Positions 9,864 to 52,500 of a stretch of 60,593 nucleotides of DNA are shown here, in pieces. Below the pieces are notes generated by a model. It saw only the letters and a list, made by a program, of their open reading frames with translations, was not told the origin of the DNA and did no database searches. The translations under genes and the position numbers were made by a program. Position 1 is the first letter of the stretch, and the number at the start of each line of letters is the position of its first letter. The DNA is from a virus (taxonomy: Duplodnaviria > Caudoviricetes), in the IMG/VR virus record IMGVR_UViG_3300006920_000048, positions 1 through 60,593 of that record; one strand, given 5' to 3'.

Positions 9864-10274
9864 CTAAGTTTTGGTTGGTTTGCGGATTGATAATTTTGAT
9901 TCTTTGAAGATGTTAACTCCTGGAGGCAAATCCCCTTCGTTATCTTCCATGTACTGTTTTATAGCATCTGCCTTTAAGCTTTTGCTGAGAAATATCAGGG
10001 GGTCATGGTCGTTCTCCTTTAAAAATTGCGTGAACTCGGCCCAATCACTGCAACCAGCTTTAATGCTTTCGGTTATTGTTGCTGTGCCAAACTCTTTGGA
10101 CTTGATGCTGTCACCACCTGTGGCAATGATCTGCTTCTTAAGCTCAGTGCCAATGGTGTCCATCTTGCTGGTGATGTCAGCCAGCTCTTCCTTGTGACGG
10201 GCAGTGATCTCTGCCTTGACATCTCGCATCTTTACATAAATTCTAATCAGTTTTGCTGAGTCTAACGTTGTCAT
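9864..10274 (-). CDS. Conserved phage coiled-coil protein of the replication module
   Basis: YVKMRD...GTAT...DW..F...LPPGVN pattern seen upstream of SSB genes in similar phages (recollection). Confidence 0.65.
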   Translation of the reverse strand: MTTLDSAKLIRIYVKMRDVKAEITARHKEELADITSKMDTIGTELKKQIIATGGDSIKSKEFGTATITESIKAGCSDWAEFTQFLKENDHDPLIFLSKSLKADAIKQYMEDNEGDLPPGVNIFKESKLSIRKPTKT

Positions 10275-10285
10275 AAGTAAATCCT

Positions 10286-10573
10286 CTAAGTGTGTGTTTG
10301 GTTGTTGAGATCTTTGTCATCAGCTACAACTATTCTAGTAACAACCACAGTTACAGGGATCATCTTTGTAATGTGATCAATCTCTGCACGTATTTCTCGA
10401 TCTTGAATCATTCCTGTGTGGGCTTGGGTTATATCGGTGGTTCTTCCACGTGAAACATGCTCACCTGTGTGGGTGTGTCTGATTGAAATAGTAAGAAACT
10501 CACGCTCCATTTGATTTGGTTTGGTGTCCGTGAACATATGCACATGTGTTTCTTTTCTATATTTGCTCATCAT
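10286..10573 (-). CDS. Hypothetical protein flanked by 19-bp direct repeats
   Basis: ORF with GAGG RBS; repeat tcataagtaaatcctctaa at 10271 and 10570. Confidence 0.65.
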   Translation of the reverse strand: MMSKYRKETHVHMFTDTKPNQMEREFLTISIRHTHTGEHVSRGRTTDITQAHTGMIQDREIRAEIDHITKMIPVTVVVTRIVVADDKDLNNQTHT

Positions 10574-10594
10574 AAGTAAATCCTCTAAAATGAC

Positions 10595-10623
10595 AGTATA
10601 CCACTATAGCAGAGTTACATCAA
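10595..10623 (-). promoter_or_regulatory. sigma70-like promoter TTGATG-N17-TATACT (extended -10)
   Basis: Minus strand cTTGATGtaactctgctatagtggTATACTgtcatttta. Confidence 0.65.
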
Positions 10624-12170
10624 GTGATGATACTGTCGTATAAATCTAAAATATTGGCTTGGCCTTCCTGCTTACCTTCAAGCATCTTGTAGATCGACCA
10701 CTCCAGCGGGTGTGCGCCCATCTCCACGATGGTCATCTTGCGGGTTTGACCTGCTCTGTTGAACCGCTCCACAACCTGAAGTGCTTCATCGTTGCTGTAG
10801 ATCGGTGCGTAGAAGATCAATGTATCTGCTTCTGTTAAATTCAACCCGTGTGCCATAACCTTTGGATGGCACGCGAGGACGTGAGGGTTGGTAAGTGTCT
10901 TGAACTCATTAATCACTTCCCTGCGCTTCTTAAACGACACATCACCATTGAGGACTGCACAAGAGTAATGCTTACCTATATCATCTGCCAGATGCTCGAT
11001 GATACCTTTGAATGGCACGACTACTATAACTTTGGCATTAGCTTCGGCAATACACTCTAGCAGAAGATCAAGCCTTGGCTTGTAATCGACAGGAAGATAT
11101 AACCCTGTTTCTGTGTCTTTGATAACACCACACATGAGCTGGCGCATTTTATTTACTTTGTCTGCTGCGTTTACTGCTGTGATCTTGTGGTTCTTGGCTT
11201 CCAGCACAGCCTCATTCTTCATGCGAGTGAACTGCTTGGACTGCTCTTTTGACAGAACACATGATCGCTTTGTCCTCACTACTGGTGGCAGATCAAGACA
11301 ATCCTTCTTCTTGAACAACACCGCTGGCTGAAGCACGTCGAACGCCATCTTCTCAGACCCTGGCTTCGGTTCCCATTTGTATGTAGACAACTGCTTCATG
11401 GTCTTAGACTTGAACTGCCCAAAGTACACAGGGACCTTACTCGGATCAACCAATCTAGCGAGCGCCCATGCGTCTGTTGGTGCGTTAGGGCATGGTGTTG
11501 CTGTCATAGGCCACACACGAGTGTGCTTCCTTATCAGGCTGTAGAACAGTTTATATTTAGATGTGGTGGCATTCCGGTAATCAGAAGCCTCATCCAATAT
11601 AAGTATGTCATGGTCTTTAGCAGCTCTAAGCTCCTCGATCACAACCTGTATACCCTCATGGTTGATGATGTAGAAGTCCGCGTCAGAGTTCAGTGCTGCA
11701 AGTCGCTTCTCCCTGCTGCCATACACCAGCACAGCCCTGCGATGCATTAGGACATTGAACACTTCCTCCATCCACACACATTCAAGAGTGGATAGCTTGG
11801 CAACGATCAACACCTTGCGCACCTTGCCTATCTTCATTAGGTAATCAGCAGCCCATAACGCGCTTGCTGTCTTGGCAGTGCCTGCTTCATTTAACACATG
11901 TATGCGTCTATGTAGTGTTAACCGCGCTGCTGTAATTTTCTGGTGATCCCAAGGCGCATACTTCCCTGGCCAATCATACTGAGTAAGTATTGGGCTAGGA
12001 GCCTTAACACCCATGTTATTGAGTATTATGGTCTCCTGAAGCCCATGCCTAACAGCAAGGTTGAATTGACCTATGTTTATCGGTTTCTGTCTGTTATGCA
12101 GGAATTGCTCATACTTACCTGGATCACGTACCCGCAGGAGGATACTCTTAGATGGTTCATGTATCTGCAT
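10620..12170 (-). CDS. SNF2-family (DEAD/H-like) helicase
   Basis: NEAGTAKT, ILDEAS, MTATP, AHGLNLT and RFNRAGQ helicase motifs. Confidence 0.9.
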   Translation of the reverse strand: MQIHEPSKSILLRVRDPGKYEQFLHNRQKPINIGQFNLAVRHGLQETIILNNMGVKAPSPILTQYDWPGKYAPWDHQKITAARLTLHRRIHVLNEAGTAKTASALWAADYLMKIGKVRKVLIVAKLSTLECVWMEEVFNVLMHRRAVLVYGSREKRLAALNSDADFYIINHEGIQVVIEELRAAKDHDILILDEASDYRNATTSKYKLFYSLIRKHTRVWPMTATPCPNAPTDAWALARLVDPSKVPVYFGQFKSKTMKQLSTYKWEPKPGSEKMAFDVLQPAVLFKKKDCLDLPPVVRTKRSCVLSKEQSKQFTRMKNEAVLEAKNHKITAVNAADKVNKMRQLMCGVIKDTETGLYLPVDYKPRLDLLLECIAEANAKVIVVVPFKGIIEHLADDIGKHYSCAVLNGDVSFKKRREVINEFKTLTNPHVLACHPKVMAHGLNLTEADTLIFYAPIYSNDEALQVVERFNRAGQTRKMTIVEMGAHPLEWSIYKMLEGKQEGQANILDLYDSIIT

Positions 12171-15220: not shown

Positions 15221-15422
15221 CCACTGGAACCCACACCTGTTCTTCTACCTGGATGAACTTATTTACTTTCTTGGTGTCCCTGTCCTTTCGTACAACCACT
15301 TTGGCCACCGGAGGGTTCGTGAATCTGACGTTGTCGCTGGCACATGCTGGCGGTATAAAACTAAGCACAAGAGCGCCTGTTATAACTCCACATATCCACG
15401 GGAAAAGTGTTCCTTCTTTCAT
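15168..15422 (-). CDS. Small protein with N-terminal TM/signal segment
   Basis: MKEGTLFPWICGVITGALVLSFIPPA; AGGAG RBS; TGATG coupling to polymerase stop. Confidence 0.6.
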   Translation of the reverse strand: MKEGTLFPWICGVITGALVLSFIPPACASDNVRFTNPPVAKVVVRKDRDTKKVNKFIQVEEQVWVPVDGKGFSTNQEGVFDYDK

Positions 15423-18172
15423 CAATCTACTCCTTTTAAAGTTCCCCAAGTCTTACCTAACTTGGCATCAACTGGCAGTGGTATTGCAGGTGTCCACCCC
15501 CAGGCTTTTTGGTACGGTAAATTACTTAATACTTTCTTCATGTGCCTCACTTTCTGCTCCGCCTTGCCATCATCCTTGACGAATGTGAACAGTGCGTCAT
15601 GCAAATCCCATGCGTATATGTGATCAGCGTCAAAGTAATTGCGAGCTACTGCGATAGCAAGAGCTTTCATACATCCTCCAGACCCTTGAATGGGGAAGTT
15701 GATAGCAGTCTGTTGCTGATCCCATCGTGTAAGATCCCACAGCTTGATCCTTCTATGTCCGCGTGTCTCAGCGTACCCTTGTGTTGCCGCCTTGCGCTGT
15801 GCTTCTTTCCAATATTTAGGAACACCAGGATACGTGCGCAGGTACGTCTTCTTTATATGGTCAGCCTTGGCTCTCCAAAGCTGTAGTCCGTAGCCAGTTA
15901 GCGCACGAGACATTAATGACTCTACACCAATTCGGTATTGAAGTGAAAGGTTAGCGAATTTGCCCATGTTTCGGACTTCCTTAGCCAACGGATCAGTGTC
16001 TGCTTTGGTGCGCACCCACTCATAGTCTTTGCCTTCAATGTTGGCACCCATGTAAGCATGACCATCACCACCAGTCTCAAACAATTCAAGCATGGTCTCA
16101 TCTTCCGATTCACATGCCATCAATCGCATCTCTTGACCAGAGAAATCGAATTCAGCCAGCAAGTATCCAGGAGGTGCTCTCAACAGATTGCGAGCATTAG
16201 GCCCCCGCTCCCATTGGTGCAACGCTATACCTGTCTGGCATATGTTCTTGCCTTTACCTTGCGTCGATGAGTAGGTAAAGCGCCCTGAATTTCCAGTTAC
16301 AAATATTGTACCTTTGCTTCTAGCCAGCCAGTAACCTGTTTTGGTGCTTGTGCAGTAGGTTTTGATTGGCCCACTTACATACTTTACATGTCGATTGTGT
16401 ATCTGTGCAATCGGTCTGATGTGAGCCTCAGAAACATGTAACTCATAAATCCCTTTGTATGGCTGGTGTAGCCTTCCTTTCAGACCTGACAGATGCGCTG
16501 CTGTGTGCATCCACACAGCATTGGACTCAGAGTTAGTACTGTACTTGAAGCCTCCATCTTGATGAGGTGATCCATCCCAATACTTAGACTCCATTACAAA
16601 ACTTCTAAGACCTTCTTGTGTTGTGTCTAAAACCCAAGGGCCAAGGAACTTCTTGTCAGCGGTCATCCATGCAGGTATACACCCCTTGAAAATCGTTATG
16701 GTTGTCCTGTCTGAAAATTCATTCTTGCCTCTGTTCGCGTTATAGTCGATGGCATTGGCCTCTAATAACTCACGTAATCTCTCTATCTTGCGACCCTTCT
16801 TTAACGTGAATTTCACTCTGTATCTGCCAATATCCCACCAAGCATCTGCCTGAATAGCGCACAACAACCTCATTTGAGGGGGTGTTAGAGATCCGTTGAG
16901 TGTGGCAATGCCTGACACCGGCACGTCAACTCTGTGATTAATCAAAAATCCAGCTGTCTTGTCTTGCCATTTCTCGTATTTCTGCGATAGCGTGGGTATT
17001 TTATGGTTGTGTGTAAAATCACATCTCATACCTGGGTGGTTGACAGACACCATACCGTCAACAAGTCCACCATCAACTCTGTCAGCGTGTAAGAATTCTA
17101 TCTGTAGCTTGTCATCAACCTGGGCAATAACACCACCTTGCCAGTCATCTAGTCTTCTCCAGCCATCTGTAGTCAACACCTCAACATCACCTGGTACGCA
17201 ATATGTGCCAGACATGAAAGGTGATGGGTATGTTATAGGGCCTTTGTTGTACTCAGCACTCTTGCGCACCCCGCCGATAAACTTACTTGACTGCGTGTTG
17301 CACTTGCGCATGGCCATAAGTGCTCCGAACCGGAGATCCTCCGGGTGTTCAATTGATAGCTTAAGCAGTGTTTCTTTATCTGTAGATGCGTTGCCTGACG
17401 CGGATGTCTTTATGGGTGTATAACCCCAGCCATCAAACACCAGCGTGCGTAGCTTGGCAGGTGATCTTATTGTGGCCATCTCAATACCAGCAGCGTCAAG
17501 TGTAGCAATGGCAGCACGTGCTCTAACATCCTCTTCAAACGGTTCTAAGGCGTCAAGGTTAAGGGCGATGCCTGTTATGGCAGATAAAGCCACATCAGGT
17601 ATGCCATAACACTCAATAATAAGGCCGCGTATCTCGTCATTGGTCATAGTAGTCAGATACATTTGCGTAAGCTTGGCGGTGAACTTGGAGTCGCGCATGT
17701 TATAGATCAACAGATCTCGCCACTCTTCCTCTGTCTCAGGTACTTTTATATCTTGAATACCATAATCGGCAAACTGCGGCCATATTCTCTTGACTTCTTC
17801 CTTGAGGCCATACCCTACACCGCCAAACTGTTTGGCCTTCCAGCCATCAACCCGTTTGAGCGCGAGCATGCCATCCAACCACATGCACTGCTTAACCTCA
17901 TCAGTCAGATCAATGGCGCATAACCATGCCACATCGAACACTACATTCCAACCCACAAGGGTATACTCTTTCTCAGCTGCGTACACCAAAAATTTTCTTA
18001 GTGTCTCCTTTGATGGCATACATTTGGCGCATTTTATTCTACCATCCTGGCTGTTAGGAGACCACGCAGCGAATGACTTTATTGTAGCCTCACCTGTCTT
18101 GGCACGCCATGGTTGAAGTCCGTACTCCCTGACCTCTTGAGGTGTTTCCAAATCAAATCCACAAAGTTTCAT
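15422..18172 (-). CDS. polA: Family A DNA polymerase with 3'-5' exonuclease, interrupted by an intein
   Basis: ExoI FDLET, ExoII WNVVFD, ExoIII YNMRD; motif A DFSGQEMR, motif B R..GKFANLSLQY, motif C LHDAL. Confidence 0.92.
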   Translation of the reverse strand: MKLCGFDLETPQEVREYGLQPWRAKTGEATIKSFAAWSPNSQDGRIKCAKCMPSKETLRKFLVYAAEKEYTLVGWNVVFDVAWLCAIDLTDEVKQCMWLDGMLALKRVDGWKAKQFGGVGYGLKEEVKRIWPQFADYGIQDIKVPETEEEWRDLLIYNMRDSKFTAKLTQMYLTTMTNDEIRGLIIECYGIPDVALSAITGIALNLDALEPFEEDVRARAAIATLDAAGIEMATIRSPAKLRTLVFDGWGYTPIKTSASGNASTDKETLLKLSIEHPEDLRFGALMAMRKCNTQSSKFIGGVRKSAEYNKGPITYPSPFMSGTYCVPGDVEVLTTDGWRRLDDWQGGVIAQVDDKLQIEFLHADRVDGGLVDGMVSVNHPGMRCDFTHNHKIPTLSQKYEKWQDKTAGFLINHRVDVPVSGIATLNGSLTPPQMRLLCAIQADAWWDIGRYRVKFTLKKGRKIERLRELLEANAIDYNANRGKNEFSDRTTITIFKGCIPAWMTADKKFLGPWVLDTTQEGLRSFVMESKYWDGSPHQDGGFKYSTNSESNAVWMHTAAHLSGLKGRLHQPYKGIYELHVSEAHIRPIAQIHNRHVKYVSGPIKTYCTSTKTGYWLARSKGTIFVTGNSGRFTYSSTQGKGKNICQTGIALHQWERGPNARNLLRAPPGYLLAEFDFSGQEMRLMACESEDETMLELFETGGDGHAYMGANIEGKDYEWVRTKADTDPLAKEVRNMGKFANLSLQYRIGVESLMSRALTGYGLQLWRAKADHIKKTYLRTYPGVPKYWKEAQRKAATQGYAETRGHRRIKLWDLTRWDQQQTAINFPIQGSGGCMKALAIAVARNYFDADHIYAWDLHDALFTFVKDDGKAEQKVRHMKKVLSNLPYQKAWGWTPAIPLPVDAKLGKTWGTLKGVD
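16289..17200 (-). mobile_element. Intein (304 aa) with LAGLIDADG-like homing endonuclease
   Basis: Starts CVPGDVEVLTTDGW, block B FTHNHKI, LCAIQADA and KYWDGS helices, ends IFVTGN followed by Ser; removal restores GTY-SGRFTYSS. Confidence 0.9.
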
Positions 18173-18384
18173 GGTGTTATCCCTATCGTGCCGTTTATAG
18201 TAAGTGTATCGCCGTCAAACTCAAACTCACACCCAGGCATCTCAGTGCGCAGCATTCTTTTGAAGTCCATCAACTGATTGGAGTCCCTCAATGCAAGCGG
18301 GTCGCTTGGTGTTACGGCTTGTCTGTGGTGATCATGAGCCACAATATGTGACCACGCCGATCTTATCAACTCTAAATCACTCAA
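18169..18384 (-). CDS. Small protein, INGCI-motif family member 9
   Basis: SDLELIRSAW ... TLTINGTIGI. Confidence 0.65.
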   Translation of the reverse strand: MSDLELIRSAWSHIVAHDHHRQAVTPSDPLALRDSNQLMDFKRMLRTEMPGCEFEFDGDTLTINGTIGITP

Positions 18385-18608
18385 GGGTGTCTCCTTATAA
18401 CCATGTACTCTCTAAATTCCATGTCTCTATCAAGCAAACGCTCAGTCTTTCCAAACATGGTGACGTTGTGCCTCTTGCCCCAAGCATATGCCGCTCTCAA
18501 TGCCTTCATAGCGTAAGTTCTGTCACCGCCAGCGCCGATTAAAATCTTCAAAGGGAGTTCTTTGGTGACATCTTTGAAATTATACTTAGGTCGTGGTGAT
18601 GGAGACAT
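18381..18608 (-). CDS. Small basic protein, probable DNA-binding regulator
   Basis: RPKYNF...AAYAWGKRH..F pattern; first gene after promoter at 18633. Confidence 0.6.
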   Translation of the reverse strand: MSPSPRPKYNFKDVTKELPLKILIGAGGDRTYAMKALRAAYAWGKRHNVTMFGKTERLLDRDMEFREYMVIRRHP

Positions 18609-18632
18609 TGGAGTTCCTTGTGTTAAAATGAC

Positions 18633-18661
18633 ATTGTATCACAGTTCTTTAGTATCATCAA
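18633..18661 (-). promoter_or_regulatory. sigma70-like promoter TTGATG-N17-TACAAT (extended -10)
   Basis: Minus strand cTTGATGatactaaagaactgtgaTACAATgtcatttta; same flanks as promoter at 10595. Confidence 0.65.
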
Positions 18662-18830
18662 GACGTGCCCACATTATGCAGTTGTTGATTACCCACACCG
18701 AACAGCTGCTGACCTTAACTGTGTGACCTGTGTCACGCAGCTTTCTTATGCACATCATCCATGCGGCGAGATCACCTGAAGTAAACTGCACCTCAGCCTT
18801 GTCCAACTTCGTGAAGATATCATCACGCAT
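18639..18830 (-). CDS. Small protein, INGCI-motif family member 8
   Basis: MRDDIFTKLD ... VWVINNCIMW; start trimmed to ATG 18830. Confidence 0.65.
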   Translation of the reverse strand: MRDDIFTKLDKAEVQFTSGDLAAWMMCIRKLRDTGHTVKVSSCSVWVINNCIMWARLDDTKEL

Positions 18831-18999
18831 TTCGACCTTCTTCGTGCAGTAATATACAACCATTAATAACCCACAACCCTTTACCGTTGTATTTTGCTGT
18901 GATGCCAAACTCACCAAGCTCACTCTCGAACAAACCCCACCATTGATCACCGTAGTAAGAGACGTGATCGTCAATCATCTTAAACAAGTCAACCATCAT
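18823..18999 (-). CDS. Small protein, INGCI-motif family member 7
   Basis: MMVDLFKMID ... LWVINGCILLHEEGRNA; start trimmed to ATG 18999. Confidence 0.7.
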   Translation of the reverse strand: MMVDLFKMIDDHVSYYGDQWWGLFESELGEFGITAKYNGKGLWVINGCILLHEEGRNA

Positions 19000-19162
19000 C
19001 TCGACCATCCTCATGCAAAAGGATACAACCACCAACACACCACAGTTTGCGGCCGAGGTATTTAATATCATCCGGCATTCCTGTCGTGACTGCTTCGATT
19101 CTTAAGTCTGCAATAAAGACCTCAAATCTCTCAAAGATATCAGTTGAAGTTGATGTATCCAA
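18989..19162 (-). CDS. Small protein, INGCI-motif family member 6 (not in ORF track, 57 aa)
   Basis: TTG start behind GGGAGG; MDTSTSTDIFERFEVFIADLRIEAVTTGMPDDIKYLGRKLWCVGGCILLHEDGRDDG. Confidence 0.7.
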   Translation of the reverse strand: MDTSTSTDIFERFEVFIADLRIEAVTTGMPDDIKYLGRKLWCVGGCILLHEDGRDDG

Positions 19163-19433
19163 AGGTAGACCCTCCCAGAATTATCCGAACATCATCAACA
19201 GTTGCTAGATCAAACCCTGCCTTGAGTACAGCCGACTTGATTCTGCTGATCGGTGTGTCTGCTGCATCTATAATCACTTCAACCACACCATTGCGCACAC
19301 CAACCTCGCATGTATGTTTGCCATCATCTGGCAGTGATTGACCAAGCGCACTTATCAGATAGGTAAGCTTAGTCTCGGTGCGACGTGCTCTGTCTAGTAG
19401 TTCTCTAGTGTTTTCAATATCTTGTATTGTCAT
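19140..19433 (-). CDS. Hypothetical protein
   Basis: AAGGA RBS; 97 aa. Confidence 0.7.
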   Translation of the reverse strand: MTIQDIENTRELLDRARRTETKLTYLISALGQSLPDDGKHTCEVGVRNGVVEVIIDAADTPISRIKSAVLKAGFDLATVDDVRIILGGSTFGYINFN

Positions 19434-19458
19434 TTTATTTTCCTTTTAGTCATCATGA

Positions 19459-19695
19459 TTAGCTCCTGTATTTATCGGTCAATACAATGCACTCATACAC
19501 AATTTCAGTGCATTTAATCCCATTAGCCTCGATGTTGTACTCTTCAAAGATAGCACGACGTAACGCATTGCGAGTTCGTATATGCGATTTCTCTGACACT
19601 AACATTAACATTTTGCAAGTTATGTAATCCTTGTGTCTAAACCAACACAGCGCGTCCCATAACCTGAACAGCCTGTCTATTCGTGATCTTTTCAT
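19459..19695 (-). CDS. Small protein, INGCI-motif family member 5 (divergent)
   Basis: MKRSRIDRLFRLW ... EIVYECIVL; ATGA coupling. Confidence 0.6.
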   Translation of the reverse strand: MKRSRIDRLFRLWDALCWFRHKDYITCKMLMLVSEKSHIRTRNALRRAIFEEYNIEANGIKCTEIVYECIVLTDKYRS

Positions 19696-19925
19696 CCGGC
19701 CCACCATCCAGAAGGTACAACAAGGATAATGGTTCCATTCACGATTCCATGCTCATACCAGTGACCAGCGTCATCAGCGCAAGTGTAGCACTCGAAGGTA
19801 TCACACAAACGGAGGATCTCACCTTTCAACGTGGATCTGAACAGCATGTCGTTGGTGTTTGATCGCTGCTCGAACAGATCCTGGATGTGGTCTATTGGGT
19901 CACGATGTTCATATTTAGTCATCAT
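19692..19925 (-). CDS. Small protein, INGCI-motif family member 4
   Basis: DHIQDLFE ... GIVNGTIILV. Confidence 0.65.
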   Translation of the reverse strand: MMTKYEHRDPIDHIQDLFEQRSNTNDMLFRSTLKGEILRLCDTFECYTCADDAGHWYEHGIVNGTIILVVPSGWWAG

Positions 19926-20151
19926 GATTAGATCCAAAACTGTTTGACAACATAATACACCCGTTAATTAGCGCCACTTCATGCAACTCCCCGTCAATGC
20001 GGTTGCAATCGAAGCTGAATGATGTGACCTTACTTTCTATCACCAGCCGTGTGTGATGTCGTGATGGTGCAGCCATGGTTGTGTGATCTTTCCACAACCG
20101 CTCAAGGTCTTCAAATTTAGTCGTTGAAGTCGGCTTCAATTGTTTCTCCAA
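19915..20151 (-). CDS. Small protein, INGCI-motif family member 3
   Basis: FEDLERLW ... ALINGCIML; TTG start behind GGGGAGG. Confidence 0.65.
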   Translation of the reverse strand: MEKQLKPTSTTKFEDLERLWKDHTTMAAPSRHHTRLVIESKVTSFSFDCNRIDGELHEVALINGCIMLSNSFGSNHDD

Positions 20152-21289
20152 AGCTCGCTACCTCCCCACTGTCCACCACCCATAGCACAGGCACGCTACA
20201 GCTATCAGGCATAGGCCCATACATATCGGTGAATATGATTAATAAATGGCACTCGTCTGCAGCCTCAGCGTACTCAATTATTGGGTGGAAATCAGTACCT
20301 CCACCGCCAACTGCACGCATCTGCAGGTCGTAGTCTGGCCCTGTATACACATCATTGCCTTTGATCTCTGAGTCGAAGTAAACAACATCAACCTCAGAAG
20401 GCTGGCAGTCGGACATGATGTCGGAGCAGTGAGTACCCATAGCACCAGCCTGAACATCACTGATAGAGCCTGAGTAGTCGAAGCCTATGATAACCTTGCC
20501 AAGAGACTCTGACGCCATCTTAGGGCATATCATACCGCCGTAGAGCATGGATCGTTTGAAGTCTGGCTTAGCCCAATTGAACTCAGCTGCAGTCATTGCC
20601 ACCATGTACTTCTGCAGCTGTGAGTACCATGGTTGTTTGACCACCTGAACGCCGGCTACGAACCGGCGCACTGTGCTGGTATCCTTGCCAGCGGCCTTCG
20701 CTGCTTCAGCCGCACTAGCAGTTCTTATGCCAACATCACGCTCATGCTCAGCAGCAGACTTGCCTTGATTATCAGCCGGGTCGTAGTCTTTGATGTCGAA
20801 CCAATCAGCATCAAGCCCATTCAACAAACCACCGCTACCATCACCAACACTCTCACCTTCATCCGGGTTTTCCTTGGACATTTTAATGAGCTTGTCATAG
20901 ACAGCTTCAGTAGACATGCCTTTGAACAAGTCCTCACGCAATAGCGCATCACCAGGAACCTTCAAGCCGTTGTCCTCGGATAGCAACCCATTGACCACAT
21001 AATCCGCAGCAATGTTCCAAATTTTTGGGTTGCGTATGCCGCGTCGTGATGAGTGGAACAACACCACGTGCATTATCTCATGTGCTAAGATAAACACCCG
21101 ATCTTCCAATGGTCTTGGATCGAACTTGGCAGGGTTGTACTGCAGGAACACACCGTTGGTGGCTGCGATTGGCCCTTCGTTGTCTACCTTTATTTTTAGA
21201 TCGTAAAGTAATGCTGTGAAAAATATGTCACGCATTGTTAGCTTGGTGACAGCATCAATAAATCCTTGTGACTGTTCTTCTCGTTTCAT
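20117..21289 (-). CDS. Metallopeptidase-vWA protein (DUF2201-type)
   Basis: HEIMH zinc motif, WNIAADYVVN; MIDAS DYSGS, GGGGTDF, FTDMYG. Confidence 0.9.
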   Translation of the reverse strand: MKREEQSQGFIDAVTKLTMRDIFFTALLYDLKIKVDNEGPIAATNGVFLQYNPAKFDPRPLEDRVFILAHEIMHVVLFHSSRRGIRNPKIWNIAADYVVNGLLSEDNGLKVPGDALLREDLFKGMSTEAVYDKLIKMSKENPDEGESVGDGSGGLLNGLDADWFDIKDYDPADNQGKSAAEHERDVGIRTASAAEAAKAAGKDTSTVRRFVAGVQVVKQPWYSQLQKYMVAMTAAEFNWAKPDFKRSMLYGGMICPKMASESLGKVIIGFDYSGSISDVQAGAMGTHCSDIMSDCQPSEVDVVYFDSEIKGNDVYTGPDYDLQMRAVGGGGTDFHPIIEYAEAADECHLLIIFTDMYGPMPDSCSVPVLWVVDSGEVASFGETIEADFND

Positions 21290-21330
21290 GTCTTTTCCTT
21301 TGTGTGTCTAGATACAATGTGTGCTAGTAC

Positions 21331-21531
21331 CTAGCGTACTAAAATAATGCAGCCATTTACAATAAGGCCGGTTACAATAGGGCCATCTGTAATAAAGGTG
21401 CTTTTGGAGTAAGCTAGTGGTGGACAACTCTCAGTCACATATGTAATTACCTGATTAAATTGCTCAAGGTTAGTAAGCCCCCAAGCACTGTGTTGGATCT
21501 CCCAAAAGTATTCCAGTTCTTCAAAGGTCAT
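21331..21531 (-). CDS. Small protein, INGCI-motif family member 2
   Basis: FEELEYFW ... LIVNGCIILVR. Confidence 0.65.
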   Translation of the reverse strand: MTFEELEYFWEIQHSAWGLTNLEQFNQVITYVTESCPPLAYSKSTFITDGPIVTGLIVNGCIILVR

Positions 21532-21730
21532 AGGGTATCCTTATACATCCTTGGATTGTTACTCCAGTAATGTCAAACTCCGCACCGGATCGCAGGAGTT
21601 TAGTTCTGCGTCTCATATCATGGCCTTTCATTGACATGCCGATGTGTACCCAACCTTGAGGTATGGAGCACTCCTTGGAAAACTCAGGCCATATAGCGTA
21701 CACCTCCTCAAGATCCTGGTGGGCTGACAT
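21521..21730 (-). CDS. Small protein, INGCI-motif family member 1
   Basis: MSAHQDLEEVYAIW ... VTIQGCIRI; ATG 1 nt after ATPase stop. Confidence 0.65.
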   Translation of the reverse strand: MSAHQDLEEVYAIWPEFSKECSIPQGWVHIGMSMKGHDMRRRTKLLRSGAEFDITGVTIQGCIRIPYDL

Positions 21731-21731
21731 G

Positions 21732-22784
21732 TTAGGACAAGTCCAGGATAGCAGCTGTGAGTTCTTTATTCTCACGGAACCATGCACGATACTCAGGAGT
21801 GCGTGCAATAGCGTCACGATCACCACCGCTACTTGCCAACAGCTTGTGATACAACACCTGCACTTCCGTACCAAACCGCTCTGTGTACGTTCTGACAGCC
21901 TTTAAGTCTTTGGCCTTGGTCGTTGTTGCAAGCATGGCAATGACTGCCCATACGTCTGACATCTGCTCAGGCATGAAGGCTAATTTTGGGTCGTGTATGA
22001 TTTGATCATATGACACCAGTGTACGAGCGGCACGCAGGAACCCAATGAATTCTTTGCCAACTGACTCGCCAATATCACCGATGATCTCGTCTTCAGTCAT
22101 TTCTCCAGCTTCGGTGTCAAGCAGACCATCACTTAGACGAACCCATGCGCGAGGATTGGCCCATGCACCATACGTTTTTGTCTCCATATGCTTAGCGAAG
22201 CTATCGACATGGTGCATAGCAATGGACAAGTAAGCCTGCACGTACTGAGACGCACCGATATCTGCCAAGTGTTTCAAGAACCCGTCGACACACACTTCGA
22301 CCTCAACATGGCGTGATCGAGATAATAACGCGAGTGACTGCTGCACAACCCCGGACTTGTGTTTAAGGCTATTGGAGTCGGATATAATGATAACTCCTGC
22401 AGGCTTCTGCAACCCGCCCATGTCTTCGTTGTTGATGTACTTCTGCAGTGCTTTGTTTGTGGCTGGATCAGCATTGTCACGTTCACCCAAGAACAATATG
22501 CCTCGAATATTTGGATCATCGAATCGGTTCGGTAGAGCTGAGTTGTGGAAATGCTCTAATCGCTTGGAATCCATATTTGGTACCACAGCTGAGAAATCAA
22601 GTGGTGACATGCTTGGGGTGTATACATTCCAAAGCTTGAAGGACGGGTCATTCTTCTGGATGTCACGAACAGCTTGCTCAATAATCATCGTCTTACCAAT
22701 GCCAGGATTACCTGTCAAGTGGATGTTAACTCCTGTACGAACTGCACGAGTGATGATTGCTGGGATTTTTTGAATTGAAGTCAT
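21732..22784 (-). CDS. MoxR-like AAA+ ATPase (degenerate Walker B)
   Basis: GNPGIGKT Walker A; GILFLGE in place of hhhhDE; ALLSR Arg finger; NPRAW; paired with vWA gene. Confidence 0.85.
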   Translation of the reverse strand: MTSIQKIPAIITRAVRTGVNIHLTGNPGIGKTMIIEQAVRDIQKNDPSFKLWNVYTPSMSPLDFSAVVPNMDSKRLEHFHNSALPNRFDDPNIRGILFLGERDNADPATNKALQKYINNEDMGGLQKPAGVIIISDSNSLKHKSGVVQQSLALLSRSRHVEVEVCVDGFLKHLADIGASQYVQAYLSIAMHHVDSFAKHMETKTYGAWANPRAWVRLSDGLLDTEAGEMTEDEIIGDIGESVGKEFIGFLRAARTLVSYDQIIHDPKLAFMPEQMSDVWAVIAMLATTTKAKDLKAVRTYTERFGTEVQVLYHKLLASSGGDRDAIARTPEYRAWFRENKELTAAILDLS

Positions 22785-22897
22785 AATATTTTCCTTTGTA
22801 TGTTTAGATACATAGCACGTTAGTGCCTTGTTTAAGTTAAAGTTTTGCTGCTTGGTTCGGCATAGTAGCCTTTACGTGTCCCGGCTAGTACGCCGTG

Positions 22898-23689
22898 CTA
22901 ACCAGGCAATTGATTACGTTCGTTAAATAAATTCTTACGTTCAGCAAGCATGTCGGTTATCTTGTCCATGACACACATCACAATGGCTGATGGGATATCA
23001 CAGCGTATTGGCTTGATGTGCTTGATGAGCTTCAACACGTCACGGCGTAACGTGACCAGCTGTTCGCTAATCTCTTCTTTGCGCTGCTCTTGCTGAAATC
23101 TTTCGCCATCCTCCCGTAGCACTTCGCACTCACGCTCTGCCATACTGTCTGCTGCCTTAGCTGCGTCGGCATGACTGCCATACACCTCACTGACGTCGAT
23201 AGTTATGCCATCGCAGTCCACTGTACGAATAGCTGCAAGGAAGGATGTATACTCGCCCTCACAACCTGTTTCGTTTCTAATTTGCGTGCATTTTTTGTGC
23301 GATATCTGGATAGTCAACGACTCGACTCTATCTAGGGAATCACCACCTACGTGCCACGTATTAACTGCATTAGGCTCCATACGTCCTGTGAACTCGTGAC
23401 CTTCCTTCATATACACATAATTGCCACACTCGCTGCGGTTGCAGTAGCTACGTGAGTACGTGCGGCGATACCATTGGTGTTGCTTGGCCTTTTTAATTGC
23501 CGCTCGTCTGGCAAGTACTTCAGCCGCACCCTTACCTATCTTATCGAGCACATCCTGATACACCTCGATGTCAATGTAGCTGTCACTAGCGGATCTGGCA
23601 AGTGAGTCAGAGTGTTGATGGATATGTGTGGCTAACTCGCCAGCCTTGGTTAGTGTGTAGTTATTGTCATTTCTTTTGAACATGATCAT
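22898..23689 (-). CDS. Hypothetical early protein
   Basis: 263-aa ORF, ATGA coupling. Confidence 0.7.
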   Translation of the reverse strand: MIMFKRNDNNYTLTKAGELATHIHQHSDSLARSASDSYIDIEVYQDVLDKIGKGAAEVLARRAAIKKAKQHQWYRRTYSRSYCNRSECGNYVYMKEGHEFTGRMEPNAVNTWHVGGDSLDRVESLTIQISHKKCTQIRNETGCEGEYTSFLAAIRTVDCDGITIDVSEVYGSHADAAKAADSMAERECEVLREDGERFQQEQRKEEISEQLVTLRRDVLKLIKHIKPIRCDIPSAIVMCVMDKITDMLAERKNLFNERNQLPG

Positions 23690-23994
23690 TTCCCCTCTAT
23701 TATTTGATTAACTGGCCATCCCCTGGCATGCCGTGAGGCTAACGTGTTCAGTGATACTCCGGTCTTGATTGACCATTGCTTAATCGTACCTTCAGTGCCC
23801 TTGTACTTGAGTTTTATAGTTGGTTGTCGCGTACCTTTACGCCCTTCCCTTCCATTTATACACTCGGTAGGTGTCCAGCCCCTGTACTCACGATCTTGTA
23901 GTGTCCTTAGCGGCACGCCGTATTTACGAGCCATGTACGACAGCGTGGCTGTCTCACCTTTGTATGTAATAGTTATCTTACGTTTTTTTGACAT
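23686..23994 (-). CDS. Protein of two tandem small HTH-like repeats
   Basis: ITYKGETATLSYMARKYGV...RGW and LKYKGTEGTIKQWSIKTGV...RGW. Confidence 0.75.
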   Translation of the reverse strand: MSKKRKITITYKGETATLSYMARKYGVPLRTLQDREYRGWTPTECINGREGRKGTRQPTIKLKYKGTEGTIKQWSIKTGVSLNTLASRHARGWPVNQIIEGK

Positions 23995-24322
23995 ATTTTT
24001 TCCCTATTTTTCCGTGAACTATCTCTATGCTGTTAGTCCAGCCTCTATAGTGTCGACCATAGATTGTGTTGTATGATACACCTGTAGCCCGAGACAGCTC
24101 GGTCAGTGATTGGTACGTAATCCCTCTATAGATGACAGGTGTTGACAGCTTAGTCGGGCCGAAGTTAGCCGGATCTCTCTTAGGTCTGCCTTCTATAATC
24201 TCATAATCAGCCCAGCCTCGTCTGGCTCTGGTGTAAAGTGTTGCTGCAGGCATGTTTAATTCTTCAGCCCACCGCCACAAACATTGTGTCTTGCCGTTGT
24301 AGTTAAGTTTAGTCTTTCTCAC
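23978..24322 (-). CDS. Paralogue with two tandem HTH-like repeats
   Basis: GTG start behind AGGAG; LNYNGKTQCL..WAEELNM...RGW and IYRGITYQSLTELSRATGV...RGW. Confidence 0.75.
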   Translation of the reverse strand: MRKTKLNYNGKTQCLWRWAEELNMPAATLYTRARRGWADYEIIEGRPKRDPANFGPTKLSTPVIYRGITYQSLTELSRATGVSYNTIYGRHYRGWTNSIEIVHGKIGKKYVKKT

Positions 24323-24326
24323 GACT

Positions 24327-24473
24327 TTATCTCCTCGAATATTCTTCTGCCTTCTGAACCAAGGCCACACGCATTTCATGGTACAGAGCCAGCTTTTTAG
24401 CTTCCAACACAATTAGCTTGTCAAGCGTAGCAATGGCTTGCCTATACTTCTTGGCCTTCGCTTTATCGTACAT
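24327..24473 (-). CDS. Small hypothetical protein (48 aa, not in track)
   Basis: MYDKAKAKKYRQAIATLDKL...; fills the gap between neighbours exactly. Confidence 0.55.
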   Translation of the reverse strand: MYDKAKAKKYRQAIATLDKLIVLEAKKLALYHEMRVALVQKAEEYSRR

Positions 24474-24475
24474 AG

Positions 24476-25012
24476 TTATGACGCCAACTCAAGGATAGCT
24501 TCATTGATGCGCAGCTCTTCTTGCAGCTGCTCTATGGTGTCTGCCTTCACGCCCTTGACGACATCAGCACCAAACAACTCAACCAGCTTATTGGCTTGAG
24601 TCAGAGAATTATTACCTTGTTGCAACAGATGAGGCTTGTTCTGTCTGGCACGTGACGCTTTAGTCCACAACTCACTGGCCTGAGCCACCAAGTCTTTCCA
24701 CACACCTGGTAAGTCGCTCGTGGTGGTTGGGCAACTATCCGGTGTCCAGATTATCGGTGTGTGGTTCAAACGACGCAGCAGATCATTAAGTATAGAAAGC
24801 TGTGCGTTAGTGGTCACTGAGTAGCTGTAAGAGGTGACAAAGATCACATCTTGTTTTTTCTTAGTCTCAATGCGTGATGCTATGCATGTTGAGTAGCTAT
24901 ACAGCCTGTCAAAACCAGTGAATGAAAAATTTCCCGTTGGTGTTCTGGCATGGTCACGATCTTGTGATACCCATGCAGCTGCTACTTCTTCTTTTTTAAT
25001 TACGTGTCTCAT
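24476..25012 (-). CDS. Conserved phage early hypothetical protein
   Basis: LYSYSTCIA...YSVTT motif; AAGGAG RBS. Confidence 0.75.
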   Translation of the reverse strand: MRHVIKKEEVAAAWVSQDRDHARTPTGNFSFTGFDRLYSYSTCIASRIETKKKQDVIFVTSYSYSVTTNAQLSILNDLLRRLNHTPIIWTPDSCPTTTSDLPGVWKDLVAQASELWTKASRARQNKPHLLQQGNNSLTQANKLVELFGADVVKGVKADTIEQLQEELRINEAILELAS

Positions 25013-49535: not shown

Positions 49536-52500
49536 ATGTCAACACCATCATCTGAACTTGACAGACTCTTGGGCAGGGCACCAGCAAAGAAGACGACCTC
49601 AACCGACCCTTTGTTAACACCATTGCCAGGATTGCCACCGCCAGCTACAGGTAACGGGTCTATTCTTAATGTTGTTAAGGATCTACCTAAATTTGCATTG
49701 TCTGGTGCCCAGAGTTTAGTGGCTGACACAGGGGCCATTGCCGAGGGCGCAGGTGCGTTCTTGCGTGACCCAACACTTGAGGCAAAGGGCAAGGCTTTCC
49801 GGGAATCTCAGACAGCCAAAATCGCTGAGCGTACTGAGACACTCTCACCAGAGAGTCAGCGTGTAGCAGGGGCAGGTATCACAGATATCGGATTGTTTGG
49901 CGGTAACGTACCCACCGGACAGTTCTTGTTGGGAAAGACAGCTGAACTGTTGCCAGGAACGTTGGCAGGTGGCGCTATAGGTAAAGGCTTACAAATAGCC
50001 ACTAAAGGAGCTATTGGCATTGGCGCTGGATCAGCTGTTGGCGAGTCGTTGGTATCTGCCCCAAGTGGTGCAGCGCAACAGGCTCGCAACATTGACTCCA
50101 CAAGTACAGAACAGTTATTGAAGGACTCTTCACAATTTAAAGCAGCATTTGATAAAAACGCGCATCTTTCTCCTGAAGAGCAGGACGCTGCCGCTCGATC
50201 AGAGTTAAAAGGCTTGGCCATCCCAACAGGTGCCTTGGCTTCAGCTCTGTCAGTGGCAGCAGGTTCTGCACTGGCCAACAGGGTATCCAAAGGAGCGGCT
50301 GGTGGTGTGTTCAGTGAAGCAGCAGATACTGCACAAGGAGTCATTTCTGGTACGCTCGGTGGTGCTAGACGTGAGGCTATACAAGAGGTTGCTCAATCAA
50401 CACTTGAATCAATCGCTGCAGATACCGTCACCGCCAAATTTGTAGATCCGGTAGCAGCGCAGTTGGACGGCATGATTAAGCGTGCAGGATTGGCAGCTCT
50501 TGAAGGTGCTGTGCTTGGTGGAACAGTCGGTGGCGTCATCGGTGGCGTCCAAGGTAAGCTGAATAAGGATGCTGCGAATAAGGTTGAAAAAGCCAGAGAG
50601 ATTGTAAAGGCTCAGGAGGCAGAAGCCAAGAAAGCCGTTGTTGGAGGAACAGCTGAAGCTGGCGCTGCTGCTGAGCCTGCGGCTACGCCACAAGCAACCA
50701 AAACAGCCGGACGTATTGTAAAGCAAGTGCTGGATATTCCAAATGAAAAGTCCAAAGTTGATGTGAATGGCCTGCGTGCCACTGCAGCGACATTAGCAGA
50801 GACTTCGCCTAAAGTGTTTGAAGAGATAGCAAACACTCTTGGGTTCAGTAAGAATATATCAATCGCGGATAAGTTGGAGCAGTTTAACATCGCAGTGGAT
50901 AAGCAATCTGGGCAATCCCCGGACACACGCAACCTATCTGTGGAGCAACGTCAGGCCAGAGAAGCCGCAGCAGCAGAGGCCAATGCAGAACCCCAAGGGT
51001 TGCCTGAAGGTGTAGAGGCCAACACCGTACGGGCTGCGCGTGAGGTTAAAGAAGCTGGGCCACGTCTTCCAAAGTCAACACGTGTTGAGCTTGAAAAGAT
51101 AGCTGCTGATCCTGATCCTATTGCGCGTGCAATAGCGTACAGCGAGGTGGTCAATCGCATAGGTGAAAGTGGTAAGAATCAGAAGGGTTTGGATGCTGCA
51201 GGAATTTTACTGGAAAAAGCACAAGCAGAAGTTCAATCGAATGAAGGTGTTGCACCAGCTGATTTAGCACCTGTAGATATTGCCGAAAAATTGGCGCCAA
51301 AAACTGACCCTGAAGCGGTAGGGTTTGACGATGTTAATTTCCAGACACCTACAGCTGTAAATGGTGAGATCCCATCAATCAACGACATCCCTGCCATACC
51401 GGAGACAGAGAACCTAACAGCTGCCAGTGTCGTGTTGCCGGAGGGCGCTCAATCACCTAACGTGGCAGAGATTGATAGTGCCAGAGCCACAGTGCAGACC
51501 GAAGGCGCTGCTGAGTCACAGGCTGTCGTTGCTGAGCAGGCAGCGGTTATAGAGCAAGCACAGGCTGTTGAGACGGCTGCAGCTGTTGAGCAGGTAGTTG
51601 GTGTAGAGCAAGCACAGGCTACTGAGCAAGTTGCGGAACAAGCTCAAATACTTCCAGAGGCTACCAAAGAGATTGCAGCGAACGCTGCAGTCGAGCAGGA
51701 TGCTCTGACACCGAAATCACTGAAGAGGAAATCAACCAAACAACTAAAGGCTATTGCCGCATCTGTAGGTAGTCAAGTAGAGAGCGACAAAAGGTCAGAA
51801 CTTATCGCCGACATTGTTAGTAGGGCTGAGGTTGGTGCGCCAATACAAGAAGCACCAGCACCAATACAAGAAGCACCAGCGCCATCGTCAGCACAAGATC
51901 CTGTAGTGCAGGTTCCTGGCATAGGTGTTGTAAACACATCCACGCGAAGCTTATCTGGGCTTACAGCCAGATCACTTGGTAGAGTAGCCAAAGCACTTGG
52001 AGTACCTCGTAACAAGGCCAAGAAGACTGAGTTTGTGAAAGCTATTCGTCAAGTGTTGATAGACAGCGTGGCTCCAGCTCCTGTACAACAGGCCGCACAA
52101 CAGGCCGCACAACAGGCCGCACAACCATCGACACCACCAGTAGTGTCAGACGCAGTACTTGCCACGATAACCAAAACACCAACACCTGTTGTGGATAACC
52201 TAGACAGCACACAGATTCGCCCTGAGACTGAGCAGGAGAAACAGCATAGGGTTGAACCTGTGCAAGTTATAACCACACCATTTACTGGCGAGGCTATCAC
52301 TGAGGCACGTATTAAATTCGGTGGCCCTGTGACGAGTGCTGCAGAGCGTGCCAGGAACAGACTAGGCGAGACCCACTTCGGCGATGACATTGAAGATATG
52401 GCAGCGGTTAACGCACTGAATGTTGACATCGAAGGCATGACTCTACCTCAAGCCAAGGAAGCTCTTCTGGCTGAGTTAGCAAGAGTTACTGCGTCAGGAA

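Follow-up and report, generated by a model that had tools for sequence, protein, structure and literature searches.

In N4-like phages, gp24 (annotated as 'unknown') and gp25 (annotated as 'vWFA domain') are core middle genes, according to the passages on this gene pair in PMC4193335. In jumbo phages, MoxR and a metallopeptidase joined to a von Willebrand factor A (vWA) domain are described as a chaperone/co-chaperone pair, and the section that treats them proposes a role in virion assembly with peptidolytic processing (Iyer et al., 2021, PMC7824862). The FxSxx-COOH systems, in which small, rapidly diverging precursors are cleaved by a neighboring zincin that releases a conserved C-terminal peptide, are linked to vWA-MoxR ternary conflict systems, and their C-terminal types are given as FxSxx, RxD and poly-acidic in the part of the study devoted to them (Kaur et al., 2020, PMC7159879). 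Phage accessory regions, as outlined in the text of bioRxiv 10.1101/2023.04.06.535777, are hot spots of small, fast-evolving, often counter-defense genes that lie between core genes. The present analysis concerns a block of small genes in IMG/VR virus record IMGVR_UViG_3300006920_000048, whose 60,593 bases were analyzed at full length and are referred to below as the window. The block surrounds an AAA+ ATPase and a vWA-peptidase that match the N4 gp24/gp25 pair (PHROG 1297 and 1314), and the order ATPase - vWA - ... - DNA polymerase is the same as in Vibrio phage K479. With moderate confidence, we read the small genes as a diversifying, host-directed accessory family in a hot spot, the conserved ends being mainly the core of the fold and the variable middle a specificity surface.

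The window comprises the whole record, for which completeness is estimated at 98%, and it represents an uncultured freshwater tailed phage whose 60.6-kb genome is nearly complete. Identical fragments were present in four DNA-type freshwater metagenome runs from three studies, one of which may have supplied the source sample; no RNA run was among the runs with identical fragments, and the contigs were free of variants or joints. A megablast search of the 5-kb block region against 50,697 GenBank phage records returned no match. The minus-strand genes at about 5.0-31.5 kb encode a primase/helicase, a helicase, an exonuclease, DNA polymerase A and the small-paralogue block, and the plus-strand structural module (terminase, portal, major head protein and others) runs from about 32.4 kb to about 59.7 kb. 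On the minus strand the gene order is ATPase, p1, p2, zincin-vWA, p3, p4, p5, x97, p6, p7, p8, x75, p9 and DNA polymerase, where p1 to p9 are the small paralogues and x97 and x75 are other small genes (Table 1). Of the 13 junctions between the ATPase and the DNA polymerase, nine are overlaps and four are gaps of 1-41 nucleotides (nt), so the genes form one tightly coupled block. The small paralogues are therefore under tight predicted co-transcription with the AAA+ ATPase and the zincin-vWA gene, mostly with translational coupling. The p3 gene overlaps the vWA gene by 35 nt and has a Shine-Dalgarno-like site, GGGGAGG, upstream of its start. A promoter and terminator scan of positions 17900-24500 gave 14 and 6 sites, respectively, against 11.2 and 4.5 expected, numbers too close to be informative. 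An earlier reading of the same DNA, the first-pass annotation, had listed nine small genes with their positions and end strings, placed two between the ATPase and the vWA gene and seven after it, and described most of them as translationally coupled; all nine minus-strand open reading frames (ORFs), the layout and the coupling were confirmed.

The position of the block bears on the idea that the pair is a virion-assembly chaperone/protease, with the paralogues as assembly clients or as minor structural or ejected proteins. That role has been proposed for the MoxR and metallopeptidase-vWA pair of group 2.2 jumbo phages, in the section cited above (Iyer et al., 2021, PMC7824862), and some N4-like roseophages encode virion proteins near gp24/gp25 homologues, according to the relevant part of PMC4193335. 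In the window, however, the block is part of the minus-strand replication module, beside the DNA polymerase, and the structural module is far away on the plus strand. Moreover, structural proteins are rarely so private, fast-evolving or cassette-swapped, and no copy matched a PHROG structural family. A role of the paralogues in the virion is thus highly improbable.

Evidence that the small genes form a family begins with their C-terminal ends. The strict motif [IV]NG[CT]I has five matches in the 1,028 six-frame ORFs of the window, and five of five lie in the array. Among 27,916 control ORFs from 162 other vWA loci it has none (0 of 14,201 in 82 viral vWA loci and 0 of 13,715 in 80 genomic vWA loci). 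A looser pattern, fitted post hoc, has 12 matches in the window; nine are the array genes, where it stands 4-12 residues from the C-terminus. The enrichment of the motif in the array is far beyond chance, and the motif codons differ among the copies, so the conservation is at the level of the protein and not that of a DNA repeat. Alignments also display the similar N-terminal helix, the poorly alignable middle and the conserved end that had been noticed at first reading. Seven of the nine copies are acidic, with net charges of -3 to -6, p5 is basic (+5.6), and p1 and p8 are near neutral; overall the copies are small, mostly acidic cytoplasmic proteins.

Membership of the individual copies was assessed together with their counterparts in L005, a 2.2-kb metagenome contig that encodes a vWA protein with 90% identity across 235 residues, followed in synteny by q3, q4, q5, an x97 orthologue, q6, q7 and q8. 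Among the nine copies, BLASTP similarity is strong just for p6-p7 and p7-p8 (Table 1). The values for p2-p3 (1e-3) and p1-p9 (6e-3) are comparable to that of a non-member pair, p4-x97 (5e-3). In a leave-out test, one orthologous group was removed, a hidden Markov model (HMM) was built from the rest, and 2,766 six-frame ORFs were searched. In this test p2, p3/q3, p4 and p7 outranked every decoy, with E values of 0.004-0.06 (p2 0.052, p3 0.008, p4 0.059 and, after removal of the entire p6-p8 subgroup, p7 0.056). One decoy ranked above p9 (E 1.2), and p1 (E 27), p5 (E 38) and q4 (E 19) were not recovered among the 2,766 ORFs. A scoring matrix for the C-terminal 9-mer, trained without p1, p5 and q5 and scored on 21,422 ORFs, placed its 12 training sequences at ranks 1-12, q5 at 19, p1 at 37 and p5 at 81. 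The N-terminal pattern RIDRLFRLWD of p5 is common to p3; as a post-hoc pattern it has four matches in all ORFs, namely p3, p5, q5 and one decoy. Taken together, the leave-out HMM and the C-terminal matrix support seven solid paralogues by sequence (p2, p3, p4, p6, p7, p8 and p9), with p1 and p5 as probable members. The initial count of nine paralogues therefore stands for seven copies, by leave-out search and BLASTP, and is weakened to a probable assignment for the other two.

The copies resemble no described family. None reached the Pfam gathering score, the best match being p1 against MbtH at 16.9 bits (cut-off 27); an MbtH-like identity of p1 was rejected, as the match (E 0.004) is below the cut-off and involves a single copy. 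None of the nine matched PHROG at E<=0.01 or PADLOC, and an NCBIfam scan of three of the nine copies (p2, p3 and p7) gave no match. Nor could x97 be accepted as a diverged member; it lacks the motif, its sole similarity is the chance-level BLAST match to p4, and it belongs to a conserved family of its own.

The family is also private to one narrow lineage, namely this phage, L005 and a few tiny contigs. Relatives were sought in a word-indexed search of 5.8 billion proteins, with a nine-sequence profile and again with an 18-sequence profile, and in an exhaustive HMMER search of 1.84 billion representatives that covered proteins of all lengths. These searches returned the phage's own proteins and a few alleles on contigs of 0.5-5 kb: P0007/P0014 (p7), P0010 and P0013 (p3-like), P0011 and P0102 (p4), and P0100, P0101 and P0103 (p8), of which P0100 is q8 and P0102 lies on a 5-kb contig. 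The exhaustive search yielded no fused form of the family. A 347-aa (amino acid) repetitive protein among the database matches, P0012, was judged spurious, as was a 26-residue match in a 200-kb contig, the one result of a search with P0102 in viral contigs. The ESM Atlas gave no usable match for p3 or x97. Closer relatives of the vWA protein were found as proteins P0016 (84% identity, 8.4-kb contig) and P0017 (69%, 2,842-base contig); the contigs of P0013 and P0017 are both recorded as 2,842 bases. Beyond this lineage, the 18-sequence family HMM had no match in 13 distant vWA loci (best E 0.18), in Vibrio phage K479 and Thermus phage phiFa, in 82 IMG/VR loci (best E 1.9) or in 80 genome loci (best E 1.7). 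With members in 0 of 177 other vWA loci, the general link between this family and AAA+/vWA loci for which the first-pass annotation had suggested a check is not borne out.

The comparison with L005 indicates how the array evolves. Protein identity to L005 is 34% for p3, 44% for p5, 54% for p4, 57% for p6, 58% for p8 and 78% for p7, against 90% for vWA; x97 is 78% identical overall, and its last 87 or so residues are nearly invariant. At the DNA level, identity is about 85-90% in vWA, x97 and p7 and falls to about 30-45% inside the p3 and p5 gene bodies and midway through p6. The synonymous substitution rate (dS, by Nei-Gojobori) is 0.49 in vWA, 0.61 in p7, 1.1 in p8, 1.5 in p3, 1.6 in p6, 2.2 in p5 and 3.6 in p4. 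Because dS is raised locally, these segments are older alleles acquired via recombination and not merely relaxed genes. The ratio of nonsynonymous to synonymous rates (dN/dS) is 0.12 for vWA and 0.09-0.52 for all six orthologous family pairs, and values below 1 show that the copies are functional coding genes. The array is thus a mosaic in which recombination exchanges entire gene bodies between conserved junctions. The family copies are under purifying selection and diverge far faster than the neighbor genes.

The junctions themselves are plausible crossover points, as their stop/start sequences are repeated; p6|p7 and p7|p8 are alike, and both hold the ribosome site and start of the next gene. 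A 22-nt copy of the p3/p4 junction lies between the p5 stop and x97, where, read on the minus strand, it contains ATGATGACTAAA, the p4 start, and opens a frame of just nine codons. It looks like a leftover stop/start junction, the scar of a lost or swapped array member. Such repeats are what would be expected if the shared ends were a by-product, that is, if the genes were chance ORFs or their ends were sequence kept for translational coupling or recombination. This explanation is largely refuted and extremely improbable. The motif lies upstream of the junctions, and its codons vary from copy to copy. Every orthologous pair has a dN/dS below 1, the ORFs are intact in L005 and in independent contigs, and the strict motif is missing from all of the control ORFs.

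Structure prediction gives a tentative picture of what the ends and the middle represent. An AlphaFold2 model of p3, from an alignment of 18 sequences, has a mean predicted local distance difference test (pLDDT) score of 73.5 and a predicted template modeling (pTM) score of 0.56; it shows helices at 10-25 and 28-41, strands at 45-52, 55-62 and 66-69, and a disordered tail, with the conserved N63-G64 as the turn preceding the last strand. A model of p7 was built from the p6-p8 subgroup alone (six sequences, pLDDT 72.4) and is a partly independent check on the p3 model. It has a helix at 5-30, short strands at 35-37, 42-45 and 48-49, and N46-G47 as a turn. The elements follow one order in both models, in which the helices precede a three-strand meander. 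At moderate confidence, the copies are thus predicted to share a compact fold of one or two N-terminal amphipathic helices followed by a three-stranded meander; the expectation of a common fold is borne out to that degree and for these two copies. The conserved block, hh[IV]NG[CT]Ihh, forms the last turn and strand in both models, with a block-mean pLDDT of about 70-83, and disorder is limited to the 4-12 residues past the motif, which is not a free tail. Since the motif lies inside the folded sheet, it fits an element of the fold core at least as well as a linear handle. Foldseek searches of the p3 model against PDB and BFVD gave nothing at E<=0.001 (best E 0.24-0.59), and the best Z scores in a wide VIA-align search, 5.5 for p3 (a FlgK domain) and 3.0 for p7, are within the noise range of the tool. 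Weak contacts of both models with the C-terminal part of pantoate-beta-alanine ligase and with a PI3K segment were not read as homology.

The two larger proteins of the block are better defined. The vWA gene product matches PF13203 (DUF2201_N; 118.7 bits, E 4.7e-34, cut-off 23.2), PF09967 (DUF2201; 62.4 bits, E 5.9e-17, cut-off 26.4) and phrog_1314 (E 1.7e-78). In an alignment of 53 vWA sequences, H70, H74 and H79 of the HExxHxxxxH signature and residues D271, S273, S275, T332 and D355 of the metal ion-dependent adhesion site (MIDAS) are invariant, and E71 is at least 90% conserved. The profile of this alignment matches an M48 peptidase (3.5e-4) and integrin I-domains (1.4e-3) in PDB. With HExxH and MIDAS residues intact and invariant, the ATPase/zincin-vWA machine is probably active. 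The ATPase has the P-loop GNPGIGKT in its translation, belongs to the same operon as the vWA gene, 443 nt upstream of it, and has homologues in 79 of 99 sources (the window and 98 vWA loci). Its match to Pfam AAA_5 spans profile positions 3-138 of 139 at 19.2 bits (E 1.3e-3), just short of the cut-off of 22; NCBIfam gave no match above cut-off, and no solved relative was found at E<0.2. The label 'MoxR-like' is based on this near-threshold match together with the vWA partnership. Of the first reading of the pair, the metallopeptidase-vWA assignment thus holds fully, with both DUF2201 domains above their gathering scores, and the MoxR-like assignment of the ATPase is tentative, with a vWA partner encoded next to it and a near-threshold domain score. 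In a protein search, the pair was annotated in 541 phage records, at less than 60% identity.

In the clade of the window, a third conserved gene accompanies the pair. Homologues of x97 were found by jackhmmer downstream of vWA in L005, L020, L029, L073, L077, L078, L079 and L080, which are the loci with the ATPases closest to that of the window. Members of this unnamed family have about 100 residues, an N-terminal 'ELLxRxRRxESR' helix and a beta-rich part, and x97 has no Pfam, PHROG or NCBIfam match. It may be a third component of the ATPase/vWA module. In several relatives the ATPase also adjoins a conserved gene of about 290-350 aa ('...LLYRPSLSIWTA+KLDK...') without a Pfam match; at that place the window has a 263-aa gene, which is not similar to the 346-aa conserved gene found upstream in L073. 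No match to DUF3150 (PF11348) was detected at E<=1 across the whole 60.6-kb record.

A neighboring zincin with an intact HExxH invites the suggestion that the paralogues are precursor substrates, similar to the FxSxx-COOH precursors, and that the zincin would cut near the conserved block, either to free a short C-terminal peptide or to make the N-terminal part active. They are small and fast-diverging, they are best conserved near the C-terminus, and several of the tails that follow the motif are acidic, for example HEDGRDDG, SNHDD and LDDTKEL; the analogy is described in the portion of PMC7159879 on these systems. The conserved block, however, is not of the FxSxx, RxD or poly-acidic type; it consists of a hydrophobic strand-turn-strand, and the 4-12 residues between it and the end are variable. 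The N-terminus is conserved as well, a cleavage site is not inferable, and a peptidase fused to vWA and paired with an AAA+ ATPase is a different architecture. We therefore regard precursor cleavage as improbable.

Other phages show what else can occupy the positions held by the paralogues. Vibrio phage K479 mirrors the order of the window, with ATPase - HNH - vWA - 68-aa gene - helicase - ... - DNA polymerase, and the slots of Thermus phage phiFa hold RNase H and two small genes. Within the clade, L073 has one 66-aa gene between ATPase and vWA, and its vWA gene and x97 homologue are directly adjacent; the slots of L080 and L029 hold single unrelated genes. Arrays of paralogues occur in two of the loci. 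In L078, where six copies were counted, three to four paralogues lie between ATPase and vWA and three after vWA, and they have a common C-terminal helix (EEAMIWVETT / EAKAWVELT). In L020, two of three 'MHPKAV...' paralogues lie between ATPase and vWA, and vWA is followed by at least six paralogues with an N-terminal 'HLxLLGW', then by the x97 homologue, two more small paralogues and the polymerase. Profile-profile comparison (hhalign) found the window family unrelated to those of L078 and L020 (probability <=0.2%). Thus, the contents of the slots ATPase|vWA|x97|polymerase differ among the window, L020, L029, L073, L078 and L080, and the ATPase-to-polymerase interval shows the variable genes between conserved core genes that are typical of an accessory region. 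In a wider sample, a small same-strand paralogue pair near vWA was found in 6 of 82 viral loci and 1 of 10 other loci at BLASTP E<1e-4, a threshold that in the window would detect p6-p8 alone.

Separately, two acidic small paralogues were seen directly 3' of the vWA gene of a distant locus, L006 (8417-8847), both with an N-terminal 'TKQ[DE]L[IL]D' helix and a hydrophobic C-terminal strand. The same locus has two membrane-like paralogues of 132 aa at 10063-10859.

The first-pass annotation had proposed that the AAA+/zincin-vWA machine, to which x97 might now be added, uses the paralogues as interchangeable adaptors or acts on them as clients. The conserved block or the acidic N-terminal helix would dock, for example through an acidic residue that completes the vWA MIDAS site, and the variable middle would select host proteins for remodeling or cleavage. 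Much of the evidence above is in keeping with this proposal: the block is tightly coupled (nine of 13 junctions overlapping), the HExxH and MIDAS residues of the partner are intact in what is probably an active machine, x97 travels with the pair in the clade, and MoxR-vWA pairs act on client proteins in studied systems, according to the passages concerned in PMC7159879. In addition, unrelated families with one constant end occupy the same two slots in L078 (a C-terminal helix) and L020 (an N-terminal segment). An adaptor or client role is a serious rival and would account for the presence, in the same two slots, of three unrelated families that each have one constant end. Nevertheless, the family is absent from the 177 other AAA+/vWA loci, and most relatives lack a detectable small-paralogue pair near vWA (6/82 and 1/10 have one). 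The close clade members L073 and L080 have ATPase, vWA and x97 with single unrelated small genes, so arrays are not needed by the machine. The motif is modeled within a folded sheet and is not a free tag, and a selfish HNH insert at the same junction in K479 fits a permissive site. On balance, the adaptor or client role appears possible and somewhat doubtful.

A broader proposal combines these elements. The ATPase and zincin-vWA, with an x97-like protein in the clade, would be a general protein-remodeling or processing engine, and the lineage-specific arrays would be its clients or adaptors, each with its own 'handle', whose variable parts retarget the engine to changing host proteins. The handles would be the strand-turn-strand block in the window, the C-terminal helix in L078 and the N-terminal segment in L020. 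This proposal is rather unlikely; if true, it would provide a function for a widespread uncharacterized core phage module.

The preferred reading, a diversifying host-directed accessory family, rests on the private mosaic nature of the family, the purifying selection, the fold models, the mostly acidic copies and the varied slot contents in relatives. On this reading the conserved ends would chiefly build the fold core, and the variable middle would form the surface that confers specificity. The copies would be accessory-region genes used against host functions, such as defense or takeover targets, with each copy aimed at a different or changing target. Placement around the ATPase and vWA genes would reflect a permissive, well-expressed middle-gene hot spot and not a proven dependence on the machine. 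Several points weigh against this interpretation. There is no homologue with a known function, no significant fold match and no PADLOC match among the searches described. In three lineages, arrays occupy precisely the ATPase|vWA and vWA|x97 slots, which is more pointed than expected of a generic hot spot, and their recurrence in the same slots may be a real functional tie to the machine. The two models behind the fold-core claim are of moderate confidence and were built from shallow alignments. Both faces of the motif strand are hydrophobic, and the strand could therefore equally be a binding or dimerization surface. Furthermore, the rate figures come from a single pairwise comparison of the window with the 2.2 kb of L005.

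The distinction matters because the ATPase/vWA-peptidase pair is core in N4-like phages and present in hundreds of other phages. If the arrays are clients or adaptors, they would offer an experimental handle on the ATPase/vWA module and reveal a new route by which phages diversify their host targeting. As hot-spot accessory genes and no more, they would still illustrate clearly how a private multigene family recombines under purifying selection, would supply reasonable candidates for host-interaction proteins, and would mark the ATPase-to-polymerase interval as an accessory region in the clade.

Table 1. Features of the block and of related loci. Positions refer to the window unless a locus is named; lengths of p1 to p9 are for the most plausible starts.
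Feature	Position	Strand	Remarks
AAA+ ATPase, 350 aa, N4 gp24-type	21732..22784	-	First gene of block; phrog_1297, E 2e-41
p1, 69 aa, probable (weak) member	21521..21730	-	ATG 1 nt past ATPase stop; C-terminal end VTIQGCIRIPYDL
p2, 66 aa, solid member	21331..21531	-	11-nt overlap with p1; strict motif IVNGCI
Zincin metallopeptidase + vWA, 390 aa, N4 gp25-type	20117..21289	-	DUF2201_N, DUF2201, phrog_1314
p3, 78 aa, solid member	19915..20151	-	TTG start; strict motif
p4, 76 aa, solid member	19692..19922	-	8-nt overlap with p3; strict motif IVNGTI
p5, 78 aa, basic, probable (weak) member	19459..19695	-	C-terminal end EIVYECIVL
22-nt repeat copy	19445..19466	-	95% to p3/p4 junction (19914-19935); repeat search, family D3
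x97, 97 aa, non-member	19140..19433	-	Conserved companion of ATPase/vWA in clade; own homologues (jackhmmer)
p6, 57 aa, solid member	18989..19162	-	p6/p7/p8 subgroup; BLASTP to p7 9e-10; end WCVGGCILLHEDGRDDG
p7, 58 aa, solid member	18823..18999	-	Strict motif VINGCI
p8, 63 aa, solid member	18639..18830	-	BLASTP to p7 2e-5
x75, 75 aa, basic, non-member	18381..18608	-	Charge +7.7; no motif or family match
p9, 71 aa, solid member	18169..18384	-	Strict motif TINGTI; stop overlaps DNA polymerase start by 4 nt
x97 family members	window 19140-19433; L020 9026-9361; L073 7187-7489; L080 7309-7629; L078 8640-8933; L029 8294-8581	- (window)	
Conserved gene beside ATPase, about 290-350 aa	L073 3280-4320; L020 2133-3149; L080 2134-3123; L029 7431-8294		
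263-aa gene at that place in window, unrelated	22898-23689		phrog_27363
L078 paralogue arrays, 74-95 aa	L078 5259-5934, 7169-7866		
L020 paralogue arrays, 74-95 aa	L020 3151-3417, 5488-6004, 7431-9013, 10086-10495		

The remaining genes of the window include some features of their own. Within the block, x75 has no Pfam or PHROG match, and a homologue is absent from all loci compared. The adjoining DNA polymerase A gene (15422-18172, minus strand) encodes 916 aa, of which Pfam DNA_pol_A covers residues 655-910 only, in two stretches, and residues 429-566 have a PhoH-like PHROG match. The stretch of this protein starting '...GTYCVPGDVEVLTTDGW' looks like an intein or other large insertion, going by an intein-like motif. 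Upstream of the block, two adjacent overlapping minus-strand genes of 102 and 144 aa (23686-23994 and 23978-24412) both match phrog_3377 and phrog_1065, a domain found with HNH endonucleases, and form a second small tandem duplication. On the plus strand, a 1,727-aa protein without a PHROG match (49536-54719) is followed by a 621-aa protein (54727-56592) that matches phrog_10089 (3e-45), the C-terminal part of DarB-like antirestriction and related giant phage proteins.

In conclusion, the locus can be placed against each of the described systems. As in phage accessory regions, small uncharacterized genes lie between core genes (ATPase, vWA, x97 and DNA polymerase), the divergence is rapid and cassette-like between flanks at 85-90% DNA identity, and the contents of the slots vary. 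Unlike the mix of unrelated genes in such regions, however, the slots of the window hold seven to nine paralogues of one private family, and, unlike in generic accessory regions, the slots of three lineages are arranged around one particular gene pair. The published N4-type pair differs in that small-paralogue arrays are not mentioned in the passages on it in PMC4193335 and PMC7824862. In common with the FxSxx-COOH systems, the window has a zincin that adjoins small, fast-diverging proteins with a most conserved C-terminal part in a MoxR/vWA setting. In contrast to those systems, its motif is a hydrophobic strand-turn-strand with 4-12 variable residues after it, the N-terminus is also conserved, and the copies form a tandem multigene phage array without a VMAP component. 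The arrays of L078 and L020 share with the window the arrangement of ATPase, two to four small paralogues, vWA, three to six small paralogues and an x97 homologue, and each has one constant end; they differ in lacking sequence or profile similarity to the window family and in that their conserved end is a helix. Full-text literature searches on this gene pair and on tandem small paralogues and accessory regions turned up no description of such an array, in agreement with the initial impression. Fast-evolving clusters of accessory genes in phage hot spots are a known kind of locus, and what is new is one private family at seven to nine copies around the ATPase/vWA pair, with parallel, unrelated expansions in the same slots.

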